Below, one piece after another: positions 1 to 54,729 of a stretch of 64,000 bases of DNA; within the stretch, counting starts at the first letter, position 1; each line of letters opens with the position of its first letter. The notes beneath the pieces are model-generated. The model ran no database searches. It was not told the origin of the DNA and was given only the letters and a program-made list of their open reading frames with translations. The stretch lies in sequence record PZ543597.1. One strand, given 5' to 3'. Source of the DNA: a phage. Both the position numbers and the translations under genes were made by a program.

Positions 1-334
1 AGGAATTTATCCTCACCGTAAAGACCCTACTAAAGCGGGCGGATTTATTCTTGAATCAGAGTGTGGAAAAATTAAGGTAAATGCTGGTTCAGGCTTAAAA
101 GATAAAGCTGGCGTAAAATCACATGAACTTGACCGTACTCGCATTATGGAAAACCAAAATTATTATATTGGAAAAATTCTAGAGTGCGAATGCAACGGTT
201 GGTTAAAATCTGATGGCCGTACTGATTACGTTAAATTATTTCTTCCGATTGCGATTCGTTTACGTGAAGATAAAATGAAAGCTAATACATTCGAAGATGT
301 ATTTGGTGATTTTCATGAGGTAACTGGTCTATGA
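1..334 (+). CDS. 30: DNA ligase, 3' end (5'-truncated by window edge; frame starts at nt 2)
   Basis: Translation from nt 2 reads ...GIYPHRKDPTKAGGFILESECGKIKVNAGSGLKDKAGVKSHELDRTRIMENQNYY...FGDFHEVTGL*, matching the T4 DNA ligase C-terminus as recalled; stop at 332-334. Confidence 0.9.
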   Translation, partial: GIYPHRKDPTKAGGFILESECGKIKVNAGSGLKDKAGVKSHELDRTRIMENQNYYIGKILECECNGWLKSDGRTDYVKLFLPIAIRLREDKMKANTFEDVFGDFHEVTGL

Positions 335-519
335 AAGCTTACTTAGAAACAATTGTCATTGCTCAAAAAGAAGGTGGAGATGTTTCTACTTCTGTATCAC
401 AAATCATGCTTGAATTTATAGATGCATATGCTTATAATAAATTTACAGAAACATTTGATGCCTATGAAAAAGGTCCGAAGTTTGAAATATACCGTACTCT
501 CTTACCACTAGATTATTAA
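331..519 (+). CDS. hypothetical small protein
   Basis: 62-aa ORF, start overlaps ligase stop (ATGA); followed by terminator hairpin. Confidence 0.5.
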   Translation: MKAYLETIVIAQKEGGDVSTSVSQIMLEFIDAYAYNKFTETFDAYEKGPKFEIYRTLLPLDY

Positions 520-545
520 AGGCCTTCGGGCCTTTAATTTTATAA
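518..545 (+). terminator. rho-independent terminator (GGCC-TTCG-GGCC stem-loop plus T-run)
   Basis: aaaggccttcgggccttt followed by aatttt. Confidence 0.6.
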
Positions 546-568
546 ATAGAATAAACACTAGAGAGGAT

Positions 569-2626
569 ATGATGGAACTTATTACAGAATTATTTGACGA
601 AGATACTACTCTTCCGATTACAAACTTAAATCCAAAGAAGAAAATACCACAAATTTTTTCAGTTCATGTTGATGACGCAATAGAACAACCAGGCTTTCGT
701 TTATGTACTTATACATCTGGAGGTGATACTAACCGTGATTTAAAGATGGGCGATAAAATGATGCACATCGTTCCTTTTACATTAACTGCTAAAGGTTCAA
801 TTGCTAAATTAAAAGGTCTCGGTCCAAGCCCAATTAATTACATCAATTCAGTTTTTACTGTTGCGATGCAAACGATGCGTCAGTATAAAATTGATGCCTG
901 CATGCTTCGTATTCTTAAGTCTAAAACTGCTGGTCAAGCTCGACAAATTCAAGTTATTGCTGATAGACTTATCCGCAGTCGTTCAGGTGGCAGATACGTC
1001 CTTCTTAAGGAACTCTGGGATTACGATAAAAAGTATGCATATATTCTTATACATCGCAAAAATGTATCACTAGAAGACATTCCAGGAGTTCCGGAAATTA
1101 GCACCGAGCTCTTTACTAAAGTTGAATCGAAGGTCGGTGATGTTTATATCAATAAAGATACTGGAGCTCAAGTAACTAAAAATGAGGCAATTGCTGCATC
1201 TATTGCGCAAGAAAATGATAAACGTTCTGACCAAGCTGTTATTGTTAAAGTTAAAATTTCCCGTAGAGCAATTGCACAAAGTCAGTCATTGGAATCTTCT
1301 AGATTTGAAACACCAATGTTTCAAAAATTTGAGGCTTCAGCAGCAGAATTAAATAAACCCGCCGACGCGCCTTTAATTTCTGATGCTAACGAATTAACTG
1401 TTATTTCTACTTCAGGATTTGCATTAGAGAATGCTCTTAATAGTGTTACAGCTGGAATGGCATTCAGAGAAGCTTCTATAATTCCTGAAGATAAAGAATC
1501 TGATGTTAATGCAGAAATAAAAAATAAAGCTTTAGAAAGATTACGAAAAGAATCTATTACTTCAATAAAAACTTTAGAAACTATTGCTTCTATAGTCGAT
1601 GATACTTTAGAAAAATATAAAAGTGCTTGGTTAGAAAGAAATATTAACAAGCATTCGCATTTAAATCAAGATGCTGCAAATGAGTTAGTGCAAAATTCTT
1701 GGAATGCAATAAAAACAAAGATTATTCGAAGAGAATTACGTGGATATGCTCTTACCGTTGGATGGTCATTGCATTCTATAGTCGAAAATAAAGATTCATC
1801 TAAATACACACCGGCTCAAAAACGCGGAATTCGTGAATATGTGGGTTCAGGATATGTAGACATGAATAATGCTCTTTTGGGATTATATAATCCAGATGAG
1901 CGTACAAGTATTTTAACAGCACCCGAAATAGAACAAGCCATCGATAATTTAGATTCAGCCTTTAAAAATGGCGATCGATTGCCAAAAGGTATTACTTTAT
2001 ATCGTTCACAGCGAATGTTACCTTCAATATATGAAGCATTGGTAAAAAATCGAGTTTTTTATTTTAGAAATTTTGTATCAACATCATTATATCCAAACAT
2101 TTTTGGTACTTGGATGACTGATTCAGCTGTGGGTGTTTTACCAGATGAAAAGCGTCTAAGCATTTCTATCGATAAAAATGATGAAGGGCTTGTTAATTCT
2201 AGCGATAATTTAGTTGGAATTGGATGGGTTATTACTGGGGCTGATAAAGTCAATGTTGTTTTACCCGGTGGAAGTTTAGCGCCTTCAAATGAAATGGAAG
2301 TCATTTTGCCACGTGGATTAATGGTCAAAATTAATAAAATAACCGATGCATCTTACAATGATGGAACAGTTAAAACTAACAACAAGCTTATTCAAGCTGA
2401 AGTTATGACTACGGAAGAACTCACCGAATCGGTAATTTATGACGGTGACCGTCTAATGGAAACTGGTGAATTGGTTGCAATGACAGATGATATTGAAATA
2501 GAAGACAGAGTTGACTTTGCATCATTTGTTTCATCAAATGTTAAACAGAAAGCAGAATCATCTCTCGGAATTATTGCGTCTTGCATAGATATTACAAACA
2601 TGCCTTACAAGTTCGTTCAAGGATAA
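569..2626 (+). CDS. alt: Alt, capsid-packaged ADP-ribosyltransferase (T4-type copy)
   Basis: 685-aa ORF; N-terminus MELITELFDEDTTLPITNL; C-terminal R-S-EXE motifs (TLYRSQ, NFVSTSL, EMEVILPRG); essentially the T4 Alt sequence as recalled. Confidence 0.9.
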   Translation: MMELITELFDEDTTLPITNLNPKKKIPQIFSVHVDDAIEQPGFRLCTYTSGGDTNRDLKMGDKMMHIVPFTLTAKGSIAKLKGLGPSPINYINSVFTVAMQTMRQYKIDACMLRILKSKTAGQARQIQVIADRLIRSRSGGRYVLLKELWDYDKKYAYILIHRKNVSLEDIPGVPEISTELFTKVESKVGDVYINKDTGAQVTKNEAIAASIAQENDKRSDQAVIVKVKISRRAIAQSQSLESSRFETPMFQKFEASAAELNKPADAPLISDANELTVISTSGFALENALNSVTAGMAFREASIIPEDKESDVNAEIKNKALERLRKESITSIKTLETIASIVDDTLEKYKSAWLERNINKHSHLNQDAANELVQNSWNAIKTKIIRRELRGYALTVGWSLHSIVENKDSSKYTPAQKRGIREYVGSGYVDMNNALLGLYNPDERTSILTAPEIEQAIDNLDSAFKNGDRLPKGITLYRSQRMLPSIYEALVKNRVFYFRNFVSTSLYPNIFGTWMTDSAVGVLPDEKRLSISIDKNDEGLVNSSDNLVGIGWVITGADKVNVVLPGGSLAPSNEMEVILPRGLMVKINKITDASYNDGTVKTNNKLIQAEVMTTEELTESVIYDGDRLMETGELVAMTDDIEIEDRVDFASFVSSNVKQKAESSLGIIASCIDITNMPYKFVQG

Positions 2627-2629
2627 ATC

Positions 2630-4687
2630 ATGGAACTTATTACAGAATTATTTGACGGCGCTTCGGCGCCGGTTGTTAACTTAAATCCTAAGCATAAAAT
2701 ACCTCAAATTTTTGCTATTCAAGCCGGTGAAGAAAGCGTGCTTCCTGGATTTAGATTTTGTACATACACCTCTGGTGGTGATACAAATAAAAACGTTAAG
2801 CCAGGCGATAAAATGATGCATATCGTAATGATAGGTGTTAATGAGAAACTATCATTAGTTAAACTTAGAAACTTGGGTGGAAATCCAATTGGTGTCATTA
2901 ATGCCGTTTTTGATACTGCTCTTCAAACAATGAAACAATATAAAATTGACGCATGCTTATTCCGCGTACTAAAGAGTAAAACAAATGGTGCAGCTCGTCA
3001 AATGCAAGTTATTGCCGACCGTTTAGTACGTACTAAAGGAGCAGGTCGATATGTTCTTTTAAAGGAAATCTGGGATTACGATAAAAAGTACGCATATATT
3101 ATGGTTTACCGTAAAAATGCCAATTTAGAAGACATTCCAGGTGTACCTCCTATTTCAACTGAGTTATTCACAAAAGTTGAATCAAAGGTTGGCGATGTTT
3201 ATGTAGATGTTAAAACGGGTAATGCTGTTCCTAAAGCTGTCGCTGTTGCCGCTTCTATTGCTTTAGAAAATGATAAGCGCACGGATCAAGCTGTTATTCA
3301 GAAAACTAAAATTAGTCGTCGATTAGCAGCACAAGCTCAATATTCTACTGTCGATGCTTCACTTCAGGGTGATAGCTTCGCTGCTAAGAAATATCAAGAG
3401 TTTGAATCTAAAGTTCCGGTATATAAAGCAGAAGGATCAATGAATTCTGGCGTTATTCAGATTGGTTCAAACTTCAGCAAAGGAGCTATCGGTGGTATGA
3501 GAAGTGCTTCTCGTTTTAAATCTAACGATTATGAACTAGAAAGCTTCCGAAATCATATTGCATTGGCCCATGCACGTTTACGTGATCCATCTATTAAGTT
3601 ACAGAGCGATATAACATATCAAGGTTCTCAGGAATATTTAAAGAATAAAGAATTTTTTGATTATAAAACTGATAAAATTTTAAGCGATCTTGCTGACATT
3701 AATATTTCTAATAGCTTTGATGTTATTAAGAAAATTATCAATGATTTAGTTAAAGGTTCTAAAGCCACGCCAGACGAAAAGGTAGCTATTATTCAATTTG
3801 TCATGAATGGCATTTATAAATTGATTAATGAATCTGCTGCTCAGGCATATGAATACGCAAGCACCGAAGTAACTCCAAAAGGATTAACTCAGGCTGAGTC
3901 TGATGTAATTGAAGATTATTGTGCAGATTCATATGTTGAAATGAACTCATTCCTCTTGGGTAAACCAGATTCTACCCGTGAAGAATATATGGAACGAGCT
4001 ATTAAACACATCGAGACAATGGATTCTGCCTTTGCCAAAGGTTCAGTTCTTCCTCCAGGAACTACGCTTTATCGTGGACAAGAAGTTACCTTTAAAACTT
4101 TACGTCATAATATTGAAAATAAAATGTTCTATTTCAAGAACTTCGTATCCACATCACTTAAACCAAATATCTTCGGTGAGCATGGTAAAAACTATATGGC
4201 TCTAGATGATTCCGGTGCAGTATTTTCTGGTGAAGGAGAAGGTTCAGTTGACGCAGAAGATTTGATGCATATGGGCAGTCACTCTGCTTATGCGAATGAA
4301 GATGCTGAAACTAGCGTGGGTATGGTAATTAAAGGAGCTGAGCGAATCAAAGTTATCGTTCCAGGTCATTTATCAGGATTTCCATCAGAAGCTGAAGTTA
4401 TTTTACCGCGTGGAATTTTGCTGAAGATTAATAAAGTGAGTACGTACATGATGAAAGAAACTGCTTATAACAAGTATCTAATCGAAGGCACAATCGTTCC
4501 TCCTTCTGAACAATTAGAAGAATCGGTATATGATGGCGACCATCTAATGGAAACTGGTGAAGTTCGTCCAATGGCTGGATTTAATCAATTCCTTGTAGAA
4601 GAATCAAAAGAAGAGGAAAACGAAGTTTCTCAAATCTTGGCTTCTTTGGTTAACATCAACGGAATGTCTAAAAAGTTCAAAATGTAG
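2630..4687 (+). CDS. Alt paralogue, ADP-ribosyltransferase with divergent central region
   Basis: 685-aa ORF 3 nt after alt; shares N-terminus (MELITELFD, CTYTSGGDTN, KQYKIDAC, GRYVLLKE) and C-terminal motifs (TLYRGQ, NFVSTSL, EAEVILPRG); residues ~230-400 unrelated to copy 1. Confidence 0.85.
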   Translation: MELITELFDGASAPVVNLNPKHKIPQIFAIQAGEESVLPGFRFCTYTSGGDTNKNVKPGDKMMHIVMIGVNEKLSLVKLRNLGGNPIGVINAVFDTALQTMKQYKIDACLFRVLKSKTNGAARQMQVIADRLVRTKGAGRYVLLKEIWDYDKKYAYIMVYRKNANLEDIPGVPPISTELFTKVESKVGDVYVDVKTGNAVPKAVAVAASIALENDKRTDQAVIQKTKISRRLAAQAQYSTVDASLQGDSFAAKKYQEFESKVPVYKAEGSMNSGVIQIGSNFSKGAIGGMRSASRFKSNDYELESFRNHIALAHARLRDPSIKLQSDITYQGSQEYLKNKEFFDYKTDKILSDLADINISNSFDVIKKIINDLVKGSKATPDEKVAIIQFVMNGIYKLINESAAQAYEYASTEVTPKGLTQAESDVIEDYCADSYVEMNSFLLGKPDSTREEYMERAIKHIETMDSAFAKGSVLPPGTTLYRGQEVTFKTLRHNIENKMFYFKNFVSTSLKPNIFGEHGKNYMALDDSGAVFSGEGEGSVDAEDLMHMGSHSAYANEDAETSVGMVIKGAERIKVIVPGHLSGFPSEAEVILPRGILLKINKVSTYMMKETAYNKYLIEGTIVPPSEQLEESVYDGDHLMETGEVRPMAGFNQFLVEESKEEENEVSQILASLVNINGMSKKFKM

Positions 4688-4716
4688 TTTACAAGTCCCT
4701 CGTGTTGTGTTATAAT
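4687..4716 (+). promoter_or_regulatory. T4 early-type sigma70 promoter (GTTTACA-N17-TATAAT)
   Basis: -35 TTTACA 4688-4693, 17-bp spacer, -10 TATAAT 4711-4716. Confidence 0.65.
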
Positions 4717-4747
4717 AATCTTACTGACATAACATGAGGAACACAAA

Positions 4748-5038
4748 ATGAAATCTTCTTTGCGCTTTTTAGGTCAAGAACTTGTAGTTGAAGGCGTTAT
4801 TCCTGCTGATAACGCTTTTAATGAAGCAGTTTACGATGAATTTATTAAAATTTTTGGAACAGATAAAAAGTTCGGAATTTTTCCTTCTGAAAATTTTTCA
4901 AAGCCAGAACAGACTGAAAGCATTTTCCAAGGTGTAGTAACAGGCAAATTTGAGTCAGAAGCTCCGGTAAAAATTGAAGTTTATATTGAAGACAGTTTAG
5001 TTGCTTCAGTTGCTGCTTTTATTTCATTCCGTAAATAA
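4748..5038 (+). CDS. hypothetical protein (alt-downstream early gene)
   Basis: 96-aa ORF with SD (gaggaa) and early promoter upstream; terminator downstream. Confidence 0.6.
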   Translation: MKSSLRFLGQELVVEGVIPADNAFNEAVYDEFIKIFGTDKKFGIFPSENFSKPEQTESIFQGVVTGKFESEAPVKIEVYIEDSLVASVAAFISFRK

Positions 5039-5040
5039 AA

Positions 5041-5066
5041 ATATGGGGACCGAAAGGTCCCCATTG
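5041..5066. terminator. bidirectional terminator hairpin between convergent genes
   Basis: GGGGACC-GAAA-GGTCCCC stem-loop at 5045-5062 flanked by A/T runs. Confidence 0.65.
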
Positions 5067-6032
5067 TTATATTGCTCCTAATATTTTACTTTGCGAATTG
5101 GCAATTCCTGTCATAGTATTAATGTTTGAAATGCTTCCTGCAGTTCCTCCTAATCTACTAAGTCGTGAAAGCGAATTAGATAGTCCAGTAACACCTCCAC
5201 TATTTCCGAGAACGCTTTGAATGCCATTTATAGCAGCAGATTCAAGCCATTCAAGCGCAGCTTGTCTATCAACTGCTCCAGCCTGCATGACTCTATACGC
5301 AAAAGTAACATCAAATGTAGTTATTTGATTATCTCCATCATATGATAACTCAGGAGCGCTCACTGACACTGGAATGCATCCGGTGAACATCACAGCAGTA
5401 TGAGGTAATCCATTACGAGCATGAAGATTAACCTGAATGTCTGCCTCGACATCTTGTGGCAAAGCACGCAGTCCAGTTACTGGGTCTTGAACAGCGTTAA
5501 CCCAGTCTTGCATTGCACGATAATTACATGCTTCTGAATCCATTCTAAATGAAATAACCAAAGGGTCTAATTCTCTCCCAGTTATACGAATATTAGGAGA
5601 ATTATAGTTCCAGTCAGTTTCATAGGATAATCTATTCTCTGGCATTTTTACAGAATATATCATCAATCCAGATGAGTTATATGCCATGTTAAAGAAGTCA
5701 ATTAAATATGTACCAACTGTAAATGAGCCCAATAAACTTTGAACTGTACGTTGACTCATGGCACCAATAAGATATTTACTAACCCCTGATTTTCTTATCA
5801 GTTTTTGTGTGCCAGCAGTAATTAGCGTGGTAATTCCCTGATTAATATCGCCTTGAGTCAATCCTAACCAATCTGAATTTAGACCCAAGTTATTATAAGA
5901 AAAGTTGCTAATTGAACTTATCAACGAAGAGCTTTTAGTTGATGGAGTTGTCGCAAAAACGCAGCTAAACATATTATTACGTTGGAAATCTGCATTTATT
6001 GCTTGATTATTAAATTCCTCTAAAGAATACAT
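5067..6032 (-). CDS. 54: baseplate tail-tube initiator gp54
   Basis: 321-aa ORF; position and length match T4 gp54; conserved gene order. Confidence 0.85.
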   Translation of the reverse strand: MYSLEEFNNQAINADFQRNNMFSCVFATTPSTKSSSLISSISNFSYNNLGLNSDWLGLTQGDINQGITTLITAGTQKLIRKSGVSKYLIGAMSQRTVQSLLGSFTVGTYLIDFFNMAYNSSGLMIYSVKMPENRLSYETDWNYNSPNIRITGRELDPLVISFRMDSEACNYRAMQDWVNAVQDPVTGLRALPQDVEADIQVNLHARNGLPHTAVMFTGCIPVSVSAPELSYDGDNQITTFDVTFAYRVMQAGAVDRQAALEWLESAAINGIQSVLGNSGGVTGLSNSLSRLSRLGGTAGSISNINTMTGIANSQSKILGAI

Positions 6033-53711: not shown

Positions 53712-53784
53712 TGGGAATTAGCCAAGTTGGTAAGGCACTGGATTTTGATTCCAGGATGCAAAGGTTCGAGTCCTTTATTCCCAG
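53712..53784 (+). tRNA. tRNA-Gln (anticodon UUG)
   Basis: acceptor TGGGAAT/ATTCCCA, anticodon loop tTTTGAt, T-loop GGTTCGAGTCC. Confidence 0.85.
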
Positions 53785-53785
53785 C

Positions 53786-53872
53786 GCGAGAATGGCCAAA
53801 TTGGTAAAGGCACAGCACTTAAAATGCTGCGGAATGATTTCCTTGTGGGTTCGAGTCCCACTTCTCGCACCA
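53786..53872 (+). tRNA. tRNA-Leu (anticodon UAA), type II, CCA encoded
   Basis: acceptor GCGAGAA/TTCTCGC, anticodon loop CTTAAAA, long variable arm, 3' ACCA. Confidence 0.85.
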
Positions 53873-53877
53873 AATTT

Positions 53878-53951
<74 letters not shown>

Positions 53952-53961
53952 ATTTAATTTA

Positions 53962-54035
53962 CTCCGTGTAGCTCAGTTTGGTAGAGCGTCTGCTTTGGGA
54001 GCAGAATGTCGTAGGTTCAAATCCTGCCACGGAGA
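53962..54035 (+). tRNA. tRNA-Pro (anticodon UGG)
   Basis: acceptor CTCCGTG/CACGGAG, anticodon loop TTTGGGA, T-loop GGTTCAAATCC. Confidence 0.85.
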
Positions 54036-54037
54036 CT

Positions 54038-54127
54038 GGAGGCGTGGCAGAGTGGTTTAATGCACCGGTCTTGAAAATCGGCAGTCGCTCCGGCGACTCA
54101 TAGGTTCAAATCCTATCGCCTCCGCCA
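54038..54127 (+). tRNA. tRNA-Ser (anticodon UGA), type II, CCA encoded
   Basis: acceptor GGAGGCG/CGCCTCC, anticodon loop CTTGAAA, long variable arm. Confidence 0.85.
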
Positions 54128-54132
54128 GTTTT

Positions 54133-54208
54133 GCTGATTTAGCTCAGTAGGTAGAGCAACTCACTTGTAATGAGAAGGTCGGCGGTTCGATTCCGTCAAT
54201 CAGCACCA
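54133..54208 (+). tRNA. tRNA-Thr (anticodon UGU), CCA encoded
   Basis: acceptor GCTGATT/AATCAGC, anticodon loop CTTGTAA. Confidence 0.85.
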
Positions 54209-54209
54209 A

Positions 54210-54284
54210 GGCCCTGTAGCTGGAAGGTTCAAGCAAGCGACTCATAATCGCCAGATGGTGGTTCAATTCCACCCAGGGCCACCA
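54210..54284 (+). tRNA. tRNA with CAU anticodon (Ile via lysidine, or Met), CCA encoded
   Basis: acceptor GGCCCTG/CAGGGCC, anticodon loop CTCATAA. Confidence 0.8.
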
Positions 54285-54293
54285 AATTAATTT

Positions 54294-54380
54294 GGGGAGT
54301 TATCCCGTAGAGGTAGCGGTGTGGACTGTAAATCCATTGTCATTGCGACTCGGGTGGTTCGACTCCACCACTCCCCACCA
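54294..54380 (+). tRNA. tRNA-Tyr (anticodon GUA), type II, CCA encoded
   Basis: acceptor GGGGAGT/ACTCCCC, anticodon loop CTGTAAA, long variable arm. Confidence 0.8.
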
Positions 54381-54384
54381 ATTT

Positions 54385-54459
54385 GGATGTGTAGCTCAAT
54401 GGCAGAGCGATCGCCTGTTAAGCGATTGGTTATAGGTTCGAATCCTATCACGTCCGCCA
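54385..54459 (+). tRNA. tRNA-Asn (anticodon GUU), CCA encoded
   Basis: acceptor GGATGTG/CACGTCC, anticodon loop CTGTTAA, T-loop GGTTCGAATCC. Confidence 0.8.
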
Positions 54460-54573
54460 AATTTGTGACAACTGTCACATTAATATCTACTTGACGCGAT
54501 TATAGGGGTTGAACTGATCACTCTTCTCTTAATTTCGTGTGAAGACATCTTGATTGTTGGAGTAGGTATTAAT

Positions 54574-54649
54574 GTGGCCGTAGTTCAGTTGGTAGAACTC
54601 GAGATTGTGATTCTCGTAGTCATGGGTTCGACTCCCATCGGTCACCCCA
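54574..54649 (+). tRNA. tRNA-His (anticodon GUG), CCA encoded
   Basis: acceptor GTGGCCG/CGGTCAC, anticodon stem CGAGA/TCTCG with loop TTGTGAT, discriminator C. Confidence 0.75.
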
Positions 54650-54653
54650 ATTA

Positions 54654-54729
54654 CGGGGCATAGCTCAGAAGGAAGAGCAAGGACCTTCTAAGTCCTAGGT
54701 CGTAGGTTCGATCCCTACTGCCTCGACCA
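54654..54729 (+). tRNA. tRNA-Arg (anticodon UCU), CCA encoded
   Basis: acceptor CGGGGCA/TGCCTCG, anticodon loop CTTCTAA, T-loop GGTTCGATCC. Confidence 0.85.

Follow-up and report, generated by a model that had tools for sequence, protein, structure and literature searches.

A tandem pair of Alt-type ADP-ribosyltransferase genes at the alt locus of a T-even phage, and the remnants of its second member in T4

We analyzed a 64,000-nucleotide stretch of phage DNA (sequence record PZ543597.1; hereafter, the window) and focused on two adjacent genes near its start whose products resemble Alt, the ADP-ribosyltransferase (ART) of phage T4. The two open reading frames (ORFs), copy 1 upstream and copy 2 downstream, lie on the same strand with only 3 nt between them (2627-2629). 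By comparison with T4, W143, T6, T2 and JS10, the pair is sited between DNA ligase/alt.1 on one side and alt.-3/gene 54 on the other, on the strand opposite to the baseplate genes (Table 1). The initial annotation had seen here two full-length tandem Alt-type paralogues, and this description held. The products are 41% identical over their full length (BLASTP, E 2e-156), and both exceed the curated cut-off of 23.4 for the Pfam family PF03496 (ADPrib_exo_Tox), copy 1 with 119 bits (E 2e-34) and copy 2 with 72.9 bits (E 3e-20). Residues 1-683 of copy 1 (E 2e-263) and 1-685 of copy 2 (E 6e-255) match positions 2-674 of phrog_802. The copies share one architecture. Each begins with an I-T-E motif and an alpha/beta N-domain of 235 aa, continues with about 175 aa of helical centre and an ART domain of the R-S-ExE type (VIP2/C3/Vis kind), and ends in a disordered tail. 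End-to-end profile match, ART residues and position together place both in the Alt family (phrog_802; PF26846 and PF03496).

The MELITE N-terminus and the arginine-ART signature that had been read in both copies were found as described. MELITE stands at residue 1 of each protein, the I-T-E motif occupies residues 4-6 and E6 is invariant. An alignment of 17 family sequences showed the catalytic R, S, S, E and E to be invariant in both copies; loss of these residues in copy 2 was looked for and not found. They correspond to R478, S503/S505 and E574/E576 in copy 1 (LYR from residue 476, STS at 503, E-x-E-VILPRG at 574/576) and to R482, S507/S509 and E587/E589 in copy 2 (LYR from residue 480, STS at 507, E-x-E-VILPRG at 587/589). 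The catalytic domain shares its ART fold with the R-S-ExE mono-ADP-ribosyltransferase toxins (Vis, the C3 exoenzymes, iota/CDTa/VIP2), but this likeness is confined to about 200 aa at 14-25% identity, whereas the N-domain, the helical centre and delivery inside the phage head are specific to the Alt family. A sequence search of solved structures returned no Alt structure, only a weak similarity of copy 1 to CdtA and nothing for copy 2, and NCBIfam held no model for either copy.

Copy 1 is the orthologue of T4 Alt (NP_049811): the two are 96% identical over 682 aa, both begin with MELITE, and both genes sit between alt.1 and the baseplate genes. Its ORF opens with two adjacent ATGs (window 569-574, MMELITE). 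The ATG at 572 is the likelier start: translation from it gives the MELITE of T4 Alt, a GAGG (563-566) precedes it by 5 nt, and phage W143 is annotated with this start. A start at 569 would mean an N-terminal propeptide of 7 residues, matching the propeptide length quoted for Alt in PMC9026906. Copy 2 resembles T4 Alt in its whole architecture, its phrog_802 membership, its R-S-ExE motifs and its probable late operon. It differs from T4 Alt in sequence, with 41% identity overall (N-domain 67%, centre 11%, ART 37%, tail 40%).

We compared copy 2 with the T4 genes at the same position, alt.-1 and alt.-2, which are broken in T4 and intact here. T4 alt.-1 (NP_049810) is 94.6% identical over 56 aa to residues 1-56 of copy 2, and T4 alt.-2 (NP_049809) is 96.4% identical over 55 aa to residues 62-116. 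The two small PHROG families that derive from the T4 fragments also match copy 2 best (phrog_23015, E 2e-40; phrog_15247, E 1e-37). At the nucleotide level, T4 DNA follows the window as far as 2977, skips 2978-4667 and resumes at 4668, and the two blastn pieces overlap by 9 nt. This overlap corresponds to a 9-bp near-repeat that flanks the segment in the window (CTAAAGAGT on the left, CTAAAAAGT on the right); in T4 a single copy of it remains, and the intervening 1699 bp are missing. The last residues of T4 alt.-2, KCSLQVPRVVL up to the stop codon, are the promoter region of alt.-3 read in frame over the deletion junction. On this comparison, T4 keeps in fragments the gene that is still whole in copy 2. 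A frameshift interrupts the T4 gene after codon 56, and a deletion of 1699 bp has taken away everything from about codon 117 onwards.

The existing records describe the same region differently. In the T4 record, alt.-1 and alt.-2 are annotated as an old duplication that covers the first part of alt; in the T6 record, the long gene is called an 'apparent insertion in alt.-2'. Since the long form has the complete Alt architecture, the sequences favour a deletion in T4 over an insertion in T6, and the T4 remnant is that of a whole-gene paralogue and not a partial duplication of alt. The statement in the initial annotation that T4 carries a single full-length alt was correct but incomplete, since T4 also keeps the remnants of a second gene.

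Relatives of the phage routinely carry both genes, in full length in about 400 of 500 Tequatrovirus records. A megablast search with window positions 1-5100 matched 506 phage records, 389 of which cover at least 80% of the query; many are annotated with the RefSeq name 'Alt-like RNA polymerase ADP-ribosyltransferase (x2)'. The 1690 bp that are specific to the long form occur in 409 records and nearly whole in 402 of these, at 93-98% identity. Of 500 matching records, 91 have the T4-type deletion junction as one contiguous stretch, among them T4 stocks, RB55, RB59 and many independent isolates. T2 and T6 have the tandem pair (697 and 685 aa) in the same arrangement and with the same neighbours, their copy 2 being 97-99% identical to that of the window. 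At least two other genera have the pair, as seen in the Dhakavirus JS10 (694 and 707 aa, both annotated 'alt') and in the Gaprivervirus SP18 ('alta' and 'altb'); the names 'alta' and 'altb' are also used in the relative IME08. In one Mosigvirus and one Marfavirus, the site is occupied by just one alt gene. Paralogues of alt had been tabulated before by Nolan et al. 2006 (PMC1524935), who included alt.-1, alt.-2 and, from phage 44RR, a duplicate of full length. The suggestion that the pair is novel therefore falls: with remnants in T4, pairs in T2 and T6 and 402 records holding the long-form segment, the second gene is conserved, and the tandem pair is a known, widely annotated and ordinary arrangement. 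We are confident that this is the usual alt locus of T-even phages (genus Tequatrovirus), here with two genes as is common among them, and that copy 2 is an old, intact paralogue.

We wondered how far the two copies have diverged and where along their length. Identity falls sharply at residue 238, from about 70% to below 20%. Within the centres (copy 1 residues ~238-411, copy 2 ~240-415), windows of 30 residues are only 3-27% identical. BLAST found no match between the centre of copy 1 and that of copy 2, and a profile-profile comparison with small profiles detected nothing (hhalign probability 0.75%), in line with the earlier statement that the central ~170 residues are unrelated. The divergence does not stop there (Table 1), and comparison with JS10 indicates its age. 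Over centre, ART domain and tail, copy 2 is 44/56/60% identical to the downstream Alt of JS10 and 12/32/41% identical to the upstream one, and copy 1 is 36/62/52% identical to the upstream Alt of JS10. As all three regions track their JS10 orthologues, the bodies behind residue 235 represent two lineages that are older than the split of the genera. The N-domain is the outlier: within a genome, the two N-domains are 67% (this phage) or 66% (JS10) identical, whereas between the genera they reach 42-46% whichever copies are compared. These values point to homogenization of the N-domain within each genome by recombination between the tandem copies, that is, to concerted evolution. The centre, ART domain and tail of each copy are of ancient descent, while tandem recombination would keep the N-domains alike and sometimes collapse the pair into one hybrid gene.

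Such hybrids exist. ECML-134, SCS4 and Yersinia phage PST have a copy-2-type body in their sole alt gene, and in the protein clusters P0003-P0007 a copy-2 body is joined to N-domains that grade from copy-2-like to copy-1-like. The contigs of P0005 and P0007 and the complete genomes of ECML-134 and PST each have a single gene between alt.1 and alt.-3. Sliding identity placed the crossovers at about nt 295 (PST), 465 (ECML-134), 555 (P0005) and 650 (P0007), and these differing points imply at least four separate unequal exchanges within the region coding for the N-domain. Each of them removed the Alt body and joined the Alt N-terminus to the copy-2 body. We considered that the hybrids in Logan contigs might be assembly chimeras and rejected this, as hybrids of the same kind occur in complete genomes of cultured phages (ECML-134, SCS4, PST); the longest exact match between the copies in the window, 28 nt, also speaks against it. 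Exchange of another kind is seen in the upstream gene. Compared with the T4-type Alt of the window, the Alt of T2 and T6 (L004 7798-9891, L003 4363-6456) has an N-domain that is 100% and a tail that is 94% identical, but a centre and ART domain with only 34% and 65% identity; the latter two are 68% and 94% identical to those of JS10 Alt (L005 2145-4229). Upstream alt thus has two very different alleles within Tequatrovirus, which points to exchange of the catalytic body between genera, an exchange that the sequences place in the upstream gene and not between copy 1 and copy 2.

The centre is best termed hypervariable. tblastn with the centre of copy 2 found only 402 Tequatrovirus records at 90-99% identity and 44 more at about 47%, those among the matches listed being Dhakavirus-like. 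The centre of copy 1 was found at 90% identity or above in only 175 phage records and, as distant relatives at 24-37%, in 612 records from several genera. The centres of SP18 AltA, SP18 AltB, P0013-15 and P0017 match the types of copy 1 and copy 2 faintly or not at all. SP18 has its pair in the same arrangement (alta and altb, L008 5813-9757), and its two centres show no BLAST similarity to those of the window or to each other; SP18 AltA is shorter (624 aa) and has a different C-terminal end. From the SP18 pair, whose centres match neither window type nor each other, the Alt family has at least four mutually unrecognizable centres. Homologue searches with either window centre alone recovered one short fragment each and not even the parent family. 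A phmmer search with the copy-2 centre gave no match at E <= 0.001 among 1.84 billion representative proteins, probably reflecting that Alt clusters are represented there by proteins with another centre; this null result is no proof that outside relatives do not exist. AlphaFold2 predicted both centres as all-helical, of near-equal length (175 vs 176-183 aa), with a parallel order of helices (248-260, 272-280, 282-294, 306-324, 332-348, 350-361 and 366-405 in copy 1; 250-260, 273-281, 286-295, 301-318, 328-338, 340-355, 362-374 and 381-414 in copy 2) and with pLDDT of about 80-90. The copy-1 model as a whole has a pLDDT of 73 and a pTM of 0.55. A fold search of BFVD matched SP18 AltA with a TM of 0.69 to the copy-2 model and 0.35 to the copy-1 model, a gap that probably reflects domain packing in the weaker copy-1 model.

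How did two such different enzymes come to stand side by side? The initial annotation spoke of swapped central domains, which would make the copies recent duplicates, one of which received an unrelated centre that alone redirects the enzyme to a new substrate. The unrecognizable centres and the abrupt fall of identity at residue 238 are what a swap would leave behind, and the family does exchange modules, as the JS10-like centre and ART domain of T2/T6 Alt illustrate. The part of the claim that does not stand is the restriction to the centre. The ART domains (37% identity) and the tails (40%) have diverged too far for recent duplicates, and the tracking of JS10 downstream Alt by centre, ART domain and tail alike marks the whole body of copy 2 as an old lineage. 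The centres also resemble each other in length and in their predicted helical arrays, both proteins align end to end to phrog_802, and the phmmer search among representative proteins yielded no known donor. We consider a swap of the centre improbable. Still less credible, to the point that we hardly reckon with it, is the reading of copy 2 as a pseudogene or a duplicate in decay, heading for the condition of T4 and 90 further records in which only remnants are left. The frame of 685 codons is intact here and in T2, T6 and W143. Pairwise comparison of the window, W143, T2 and T6 gave a dN/dS of 0.04-0.05 at a dS of 0.12-0.24 for copy 2, and 0.07-0.10 for its centre alone. The catalytic residues are all invariant, the copy-2 protein cluster has 772 members at >=90% identity, and a copy-2-type body serves as the sole alt in ECML-134 and PST. 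PF26846 (Tevenvirinae_ADPRT) and PF03496 are precomputed both for this cluster and for the hybrid genes. Selection on copy 2 is thus strongly purifying, with no sign of lost function, and we rejected the pseudogene reading on the dN/dS values.

A more serious contender, though one that we regard as unlikely, holds that copy 2 is redundant with Alt and modifies the same targets, merely raising the dose of injected ART. This would explain its loss in T4 and about 18% of relatives (the 91 of 500 records with the deletion). It fits the shared architecture, catalytic motifs and probable operon, the fact that either body can stand alone (that of Alt in T4, that of copy 2 in ECML-134 and PST), and the non-essential nature of Alt itself in T4 (PMC9026906). 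Spare copies would, however, not be expected to persist side by side across at least three genera with ART domains of 37% identity and centres that cannot be recognized as related, and both copies are under strong purifying selection, a pattern usual for sub- or neofunctionalized paralogues.

Several points weigh against our reading of the locus as an expressed pair of old paralogues with functions of their own. Part of the within-genome likeness of the N-domains could stem from co-adaptation to the head of the respective phage and not from gene conversion. The parallel helix pattern of the centres is weak evidence of homology, because both AlphaFold2 models use the shallow alignment of 17 sequences in which both paralogue types are mixed. 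The late-promoter and terminator assignments described below are consensus matches only. For copy 2, the searchable literature contained no experiment or proteomic record on the protein, only Nolan 2006 and general reviews, and its packaging, processing, injection, enzymatic activity and targets are all deduced from homology.

The layout of the locus suggests how the pair might be expressed (Table 1). The window starts with the 3' end of the DNA ligase gene 30, which ends at 334 (ORF map; naming after T4 and W143). The hairpin directly behind alt.1 is a probable terminator for early transcription arriving from gene 30 and alt.1; it was not flagged by a consensus terminator scan. The late promoter box upstream of copy 1 is the only occurrence of TATAAATA on the + strand within 1-5100; in the whole window it occurs 24 times, where chance would give 9.9. 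As the + strand carries no TATAAATA from 549 to 5100, copy 2 has no promoter of its own of this kind, which implies co-transcription with copy 1. One late promoter thus probably drives both genes as a single late transcript. Past alt.-3 follow genes 54, 48 and 29, all on the - strand (ORF map). Far from this locus, 11 tRNA genes are clustered at window positions 53712-54729 (Gln, Leu, Gly, Pro, Ser, Thr, Met(CAT), Tyr, Asn, His, Arg). T4 has 8 tRNA genes and is not known to have those for Tyr, Asn and His. At the tRNA locus, this phage would therefore look closer to T2 or T6.

Table 1. Features of the alt locus and of the two Alt proteins. Positions are those of the window unless residues or another sequence are named.
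Feature	Position	Strand	Remark
alt.1 orthologue, 62 aa	331..519	+	95% identity to T4 Alt.1; Pfam PF24647 Phage_blade match; marks the ligase side
GC-rich hairpin AAAGGCC-TTCG-GGCCTTT	518..535	+	directly 3' of alt.1, T-rich stretch after it; read from sequence; probable terminator
T4-type late promoter box TATAAATA	541..548	+	24 nt upstream of alt start; consensus match
Copy 1 (alt), 684 aa	572..2626	+	ORF also opens at ATG 569 (569-2626, 685 aa)
Copy 1 domains	residues		I-T-E site; N-domain 1-235; helical centre ~238-411; ART ~412-620; tail from ~620
YDGDxLMETGE motif of copy 1	2441-2470	+	copy 1 residues 624-633
Putative ribosome-binding site of copy 2, AGGA	2620..2623	+	within last codons of copy 1; 6 nt before ATG 2630
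Copy 2, 685 aa	2630..4687	+	intact Alt paralogue
Copy 2 domains	residues		I-T-E site; N-domain 1-235; helical centre ~240-415; ART ~418-630; disordered tail 630-685
YDGDxLMETGE motif of copy 2	4532-4561	+	copy 2 residues 635-644
N-domain, copy 1 vs copy 2	residues ~1-235		67% identity
Centre, copy 1 vs copy 2	residues ~240-415		11% identity
ART domain, copy 1 vs copy 2			37% identity
Tail, copy 1 vs copy 2	last ~55 residues		40% identity
Left 9-bp near-repeat CTAAAGAGT	2969..2977	+	putative deletion endpoint of the T4 lineage
Right 9-bp near-repeat CTAAAAAGT	4668..4676	+	putative deletion endpoint of the T4 lineage
Early-type promoter (G)TTTACA - 17 nt - TG-TATAAT	4687..4716	+	upstream of alt.-3; best sigma-70-like site in 1-5200; 11/12 positions plus TG extension
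alt.-3 orthologue, 96 aa, DUF5498	4748..5038	+	100% identity to T4 Alt.-3; PF17602 E 1e-64
Bidirectional hairpin terminator (predicted)	5043..5064	both	between alt.-3 (+) and gene 54 (-); 9-bp stem, 6 GC pairs
Single hybrid alt, 684-686 aa	L011 3252-5312 (ECML-134); L012 3249-5309 (PST); L010 5001-7055; L009 5001-7061		copy-2-type body

What might copy 2 do? Alt targets the RNA polymerase alpha subunit and many other proteins. T4 Alt, an NAD+--arginine ADP-ribosyltransferase, is a component of the prohead core, present at about 40 copies per head, whose N-terminal peptide is cut off by gp21 and which is ejected into the cell (PMC9958956; PMC9026906). It is processed at both ends (PMC9026906), its C-terminal processing having been reported by Kuhn and Thomas 2022. 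In both window copies we noticed an invariant motif, Y-D-G-D-x-L-M-E-T-G-E (YDGDHLMETGE in copy 2), which is followed by a tail of about 45-55 residues with a pLDDT below 40 in both models. The L-M-E within this motif fits the L/I-x-E rule of gp21. Judged from sequence, it may be the C-terminal processing site of Alt.

The I-T-E site, the conserved N-domain and the YDGDxLMETGE motif before a disordered tail are all retained in copy 2. From this we infer that, like Alt, it undergoes packaging, trimming and injection, and that its activity is that of an arginine mono-ADP-ribosyltransferase. In the sequence of events that we propose, copy 1 and copy 2 would be transcribed together from the late promoter, and translation of copy 2 would start from a separate ribosome-binding site that overlaps the end of copy 1. 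The two proteins would be made during prohead assembly, enter the scaffolding core via their shared N-terminal part, be trimmed by the gp21 prohead protease and then be injected with the DNA. Inside the cell, both would modify host proteins by NAD+-dependent mono-ADP-ribosylation of arginines. With its diverged centre and ART surface, copy 2 would probably have a partly different target range. The different host substrate that the initial annotation suggested for copy 2 is plausible.

We speculate further, and only tentatively since we see this as possible rather than probable, that copy 2 is a second head-packaged and injected ART whose host targets are distinct from those of Alt (e.g. in another arm of host takeover or in counter-defence), that it has gone unstudied only because T4 deleted it, and that the alt locus is a recombination-driven effector cassette. 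If true, the N-terminal packaging module would be a homology anchor behind which catalytic bodies are exchanged between genera, homogenized, or collapsed into hybrids.

As a genome feature the pair adds little, being annotated in hundreds of T-even genomes. Its meaning lies in what T4 stands for: the knowledge of injected ARTs in T-even phages comes from T4, a minority lineage that appears to have lost the second enzyme, whereas T2, T6 and most natural isolates would inject two different ARTs. T4 (Alt body only), ECML-134 and PST (copy-2 body only) and T2, T6 and the phage analyzed here (both) are natural variants that would allow a direct functional comparison of the two enzymes.

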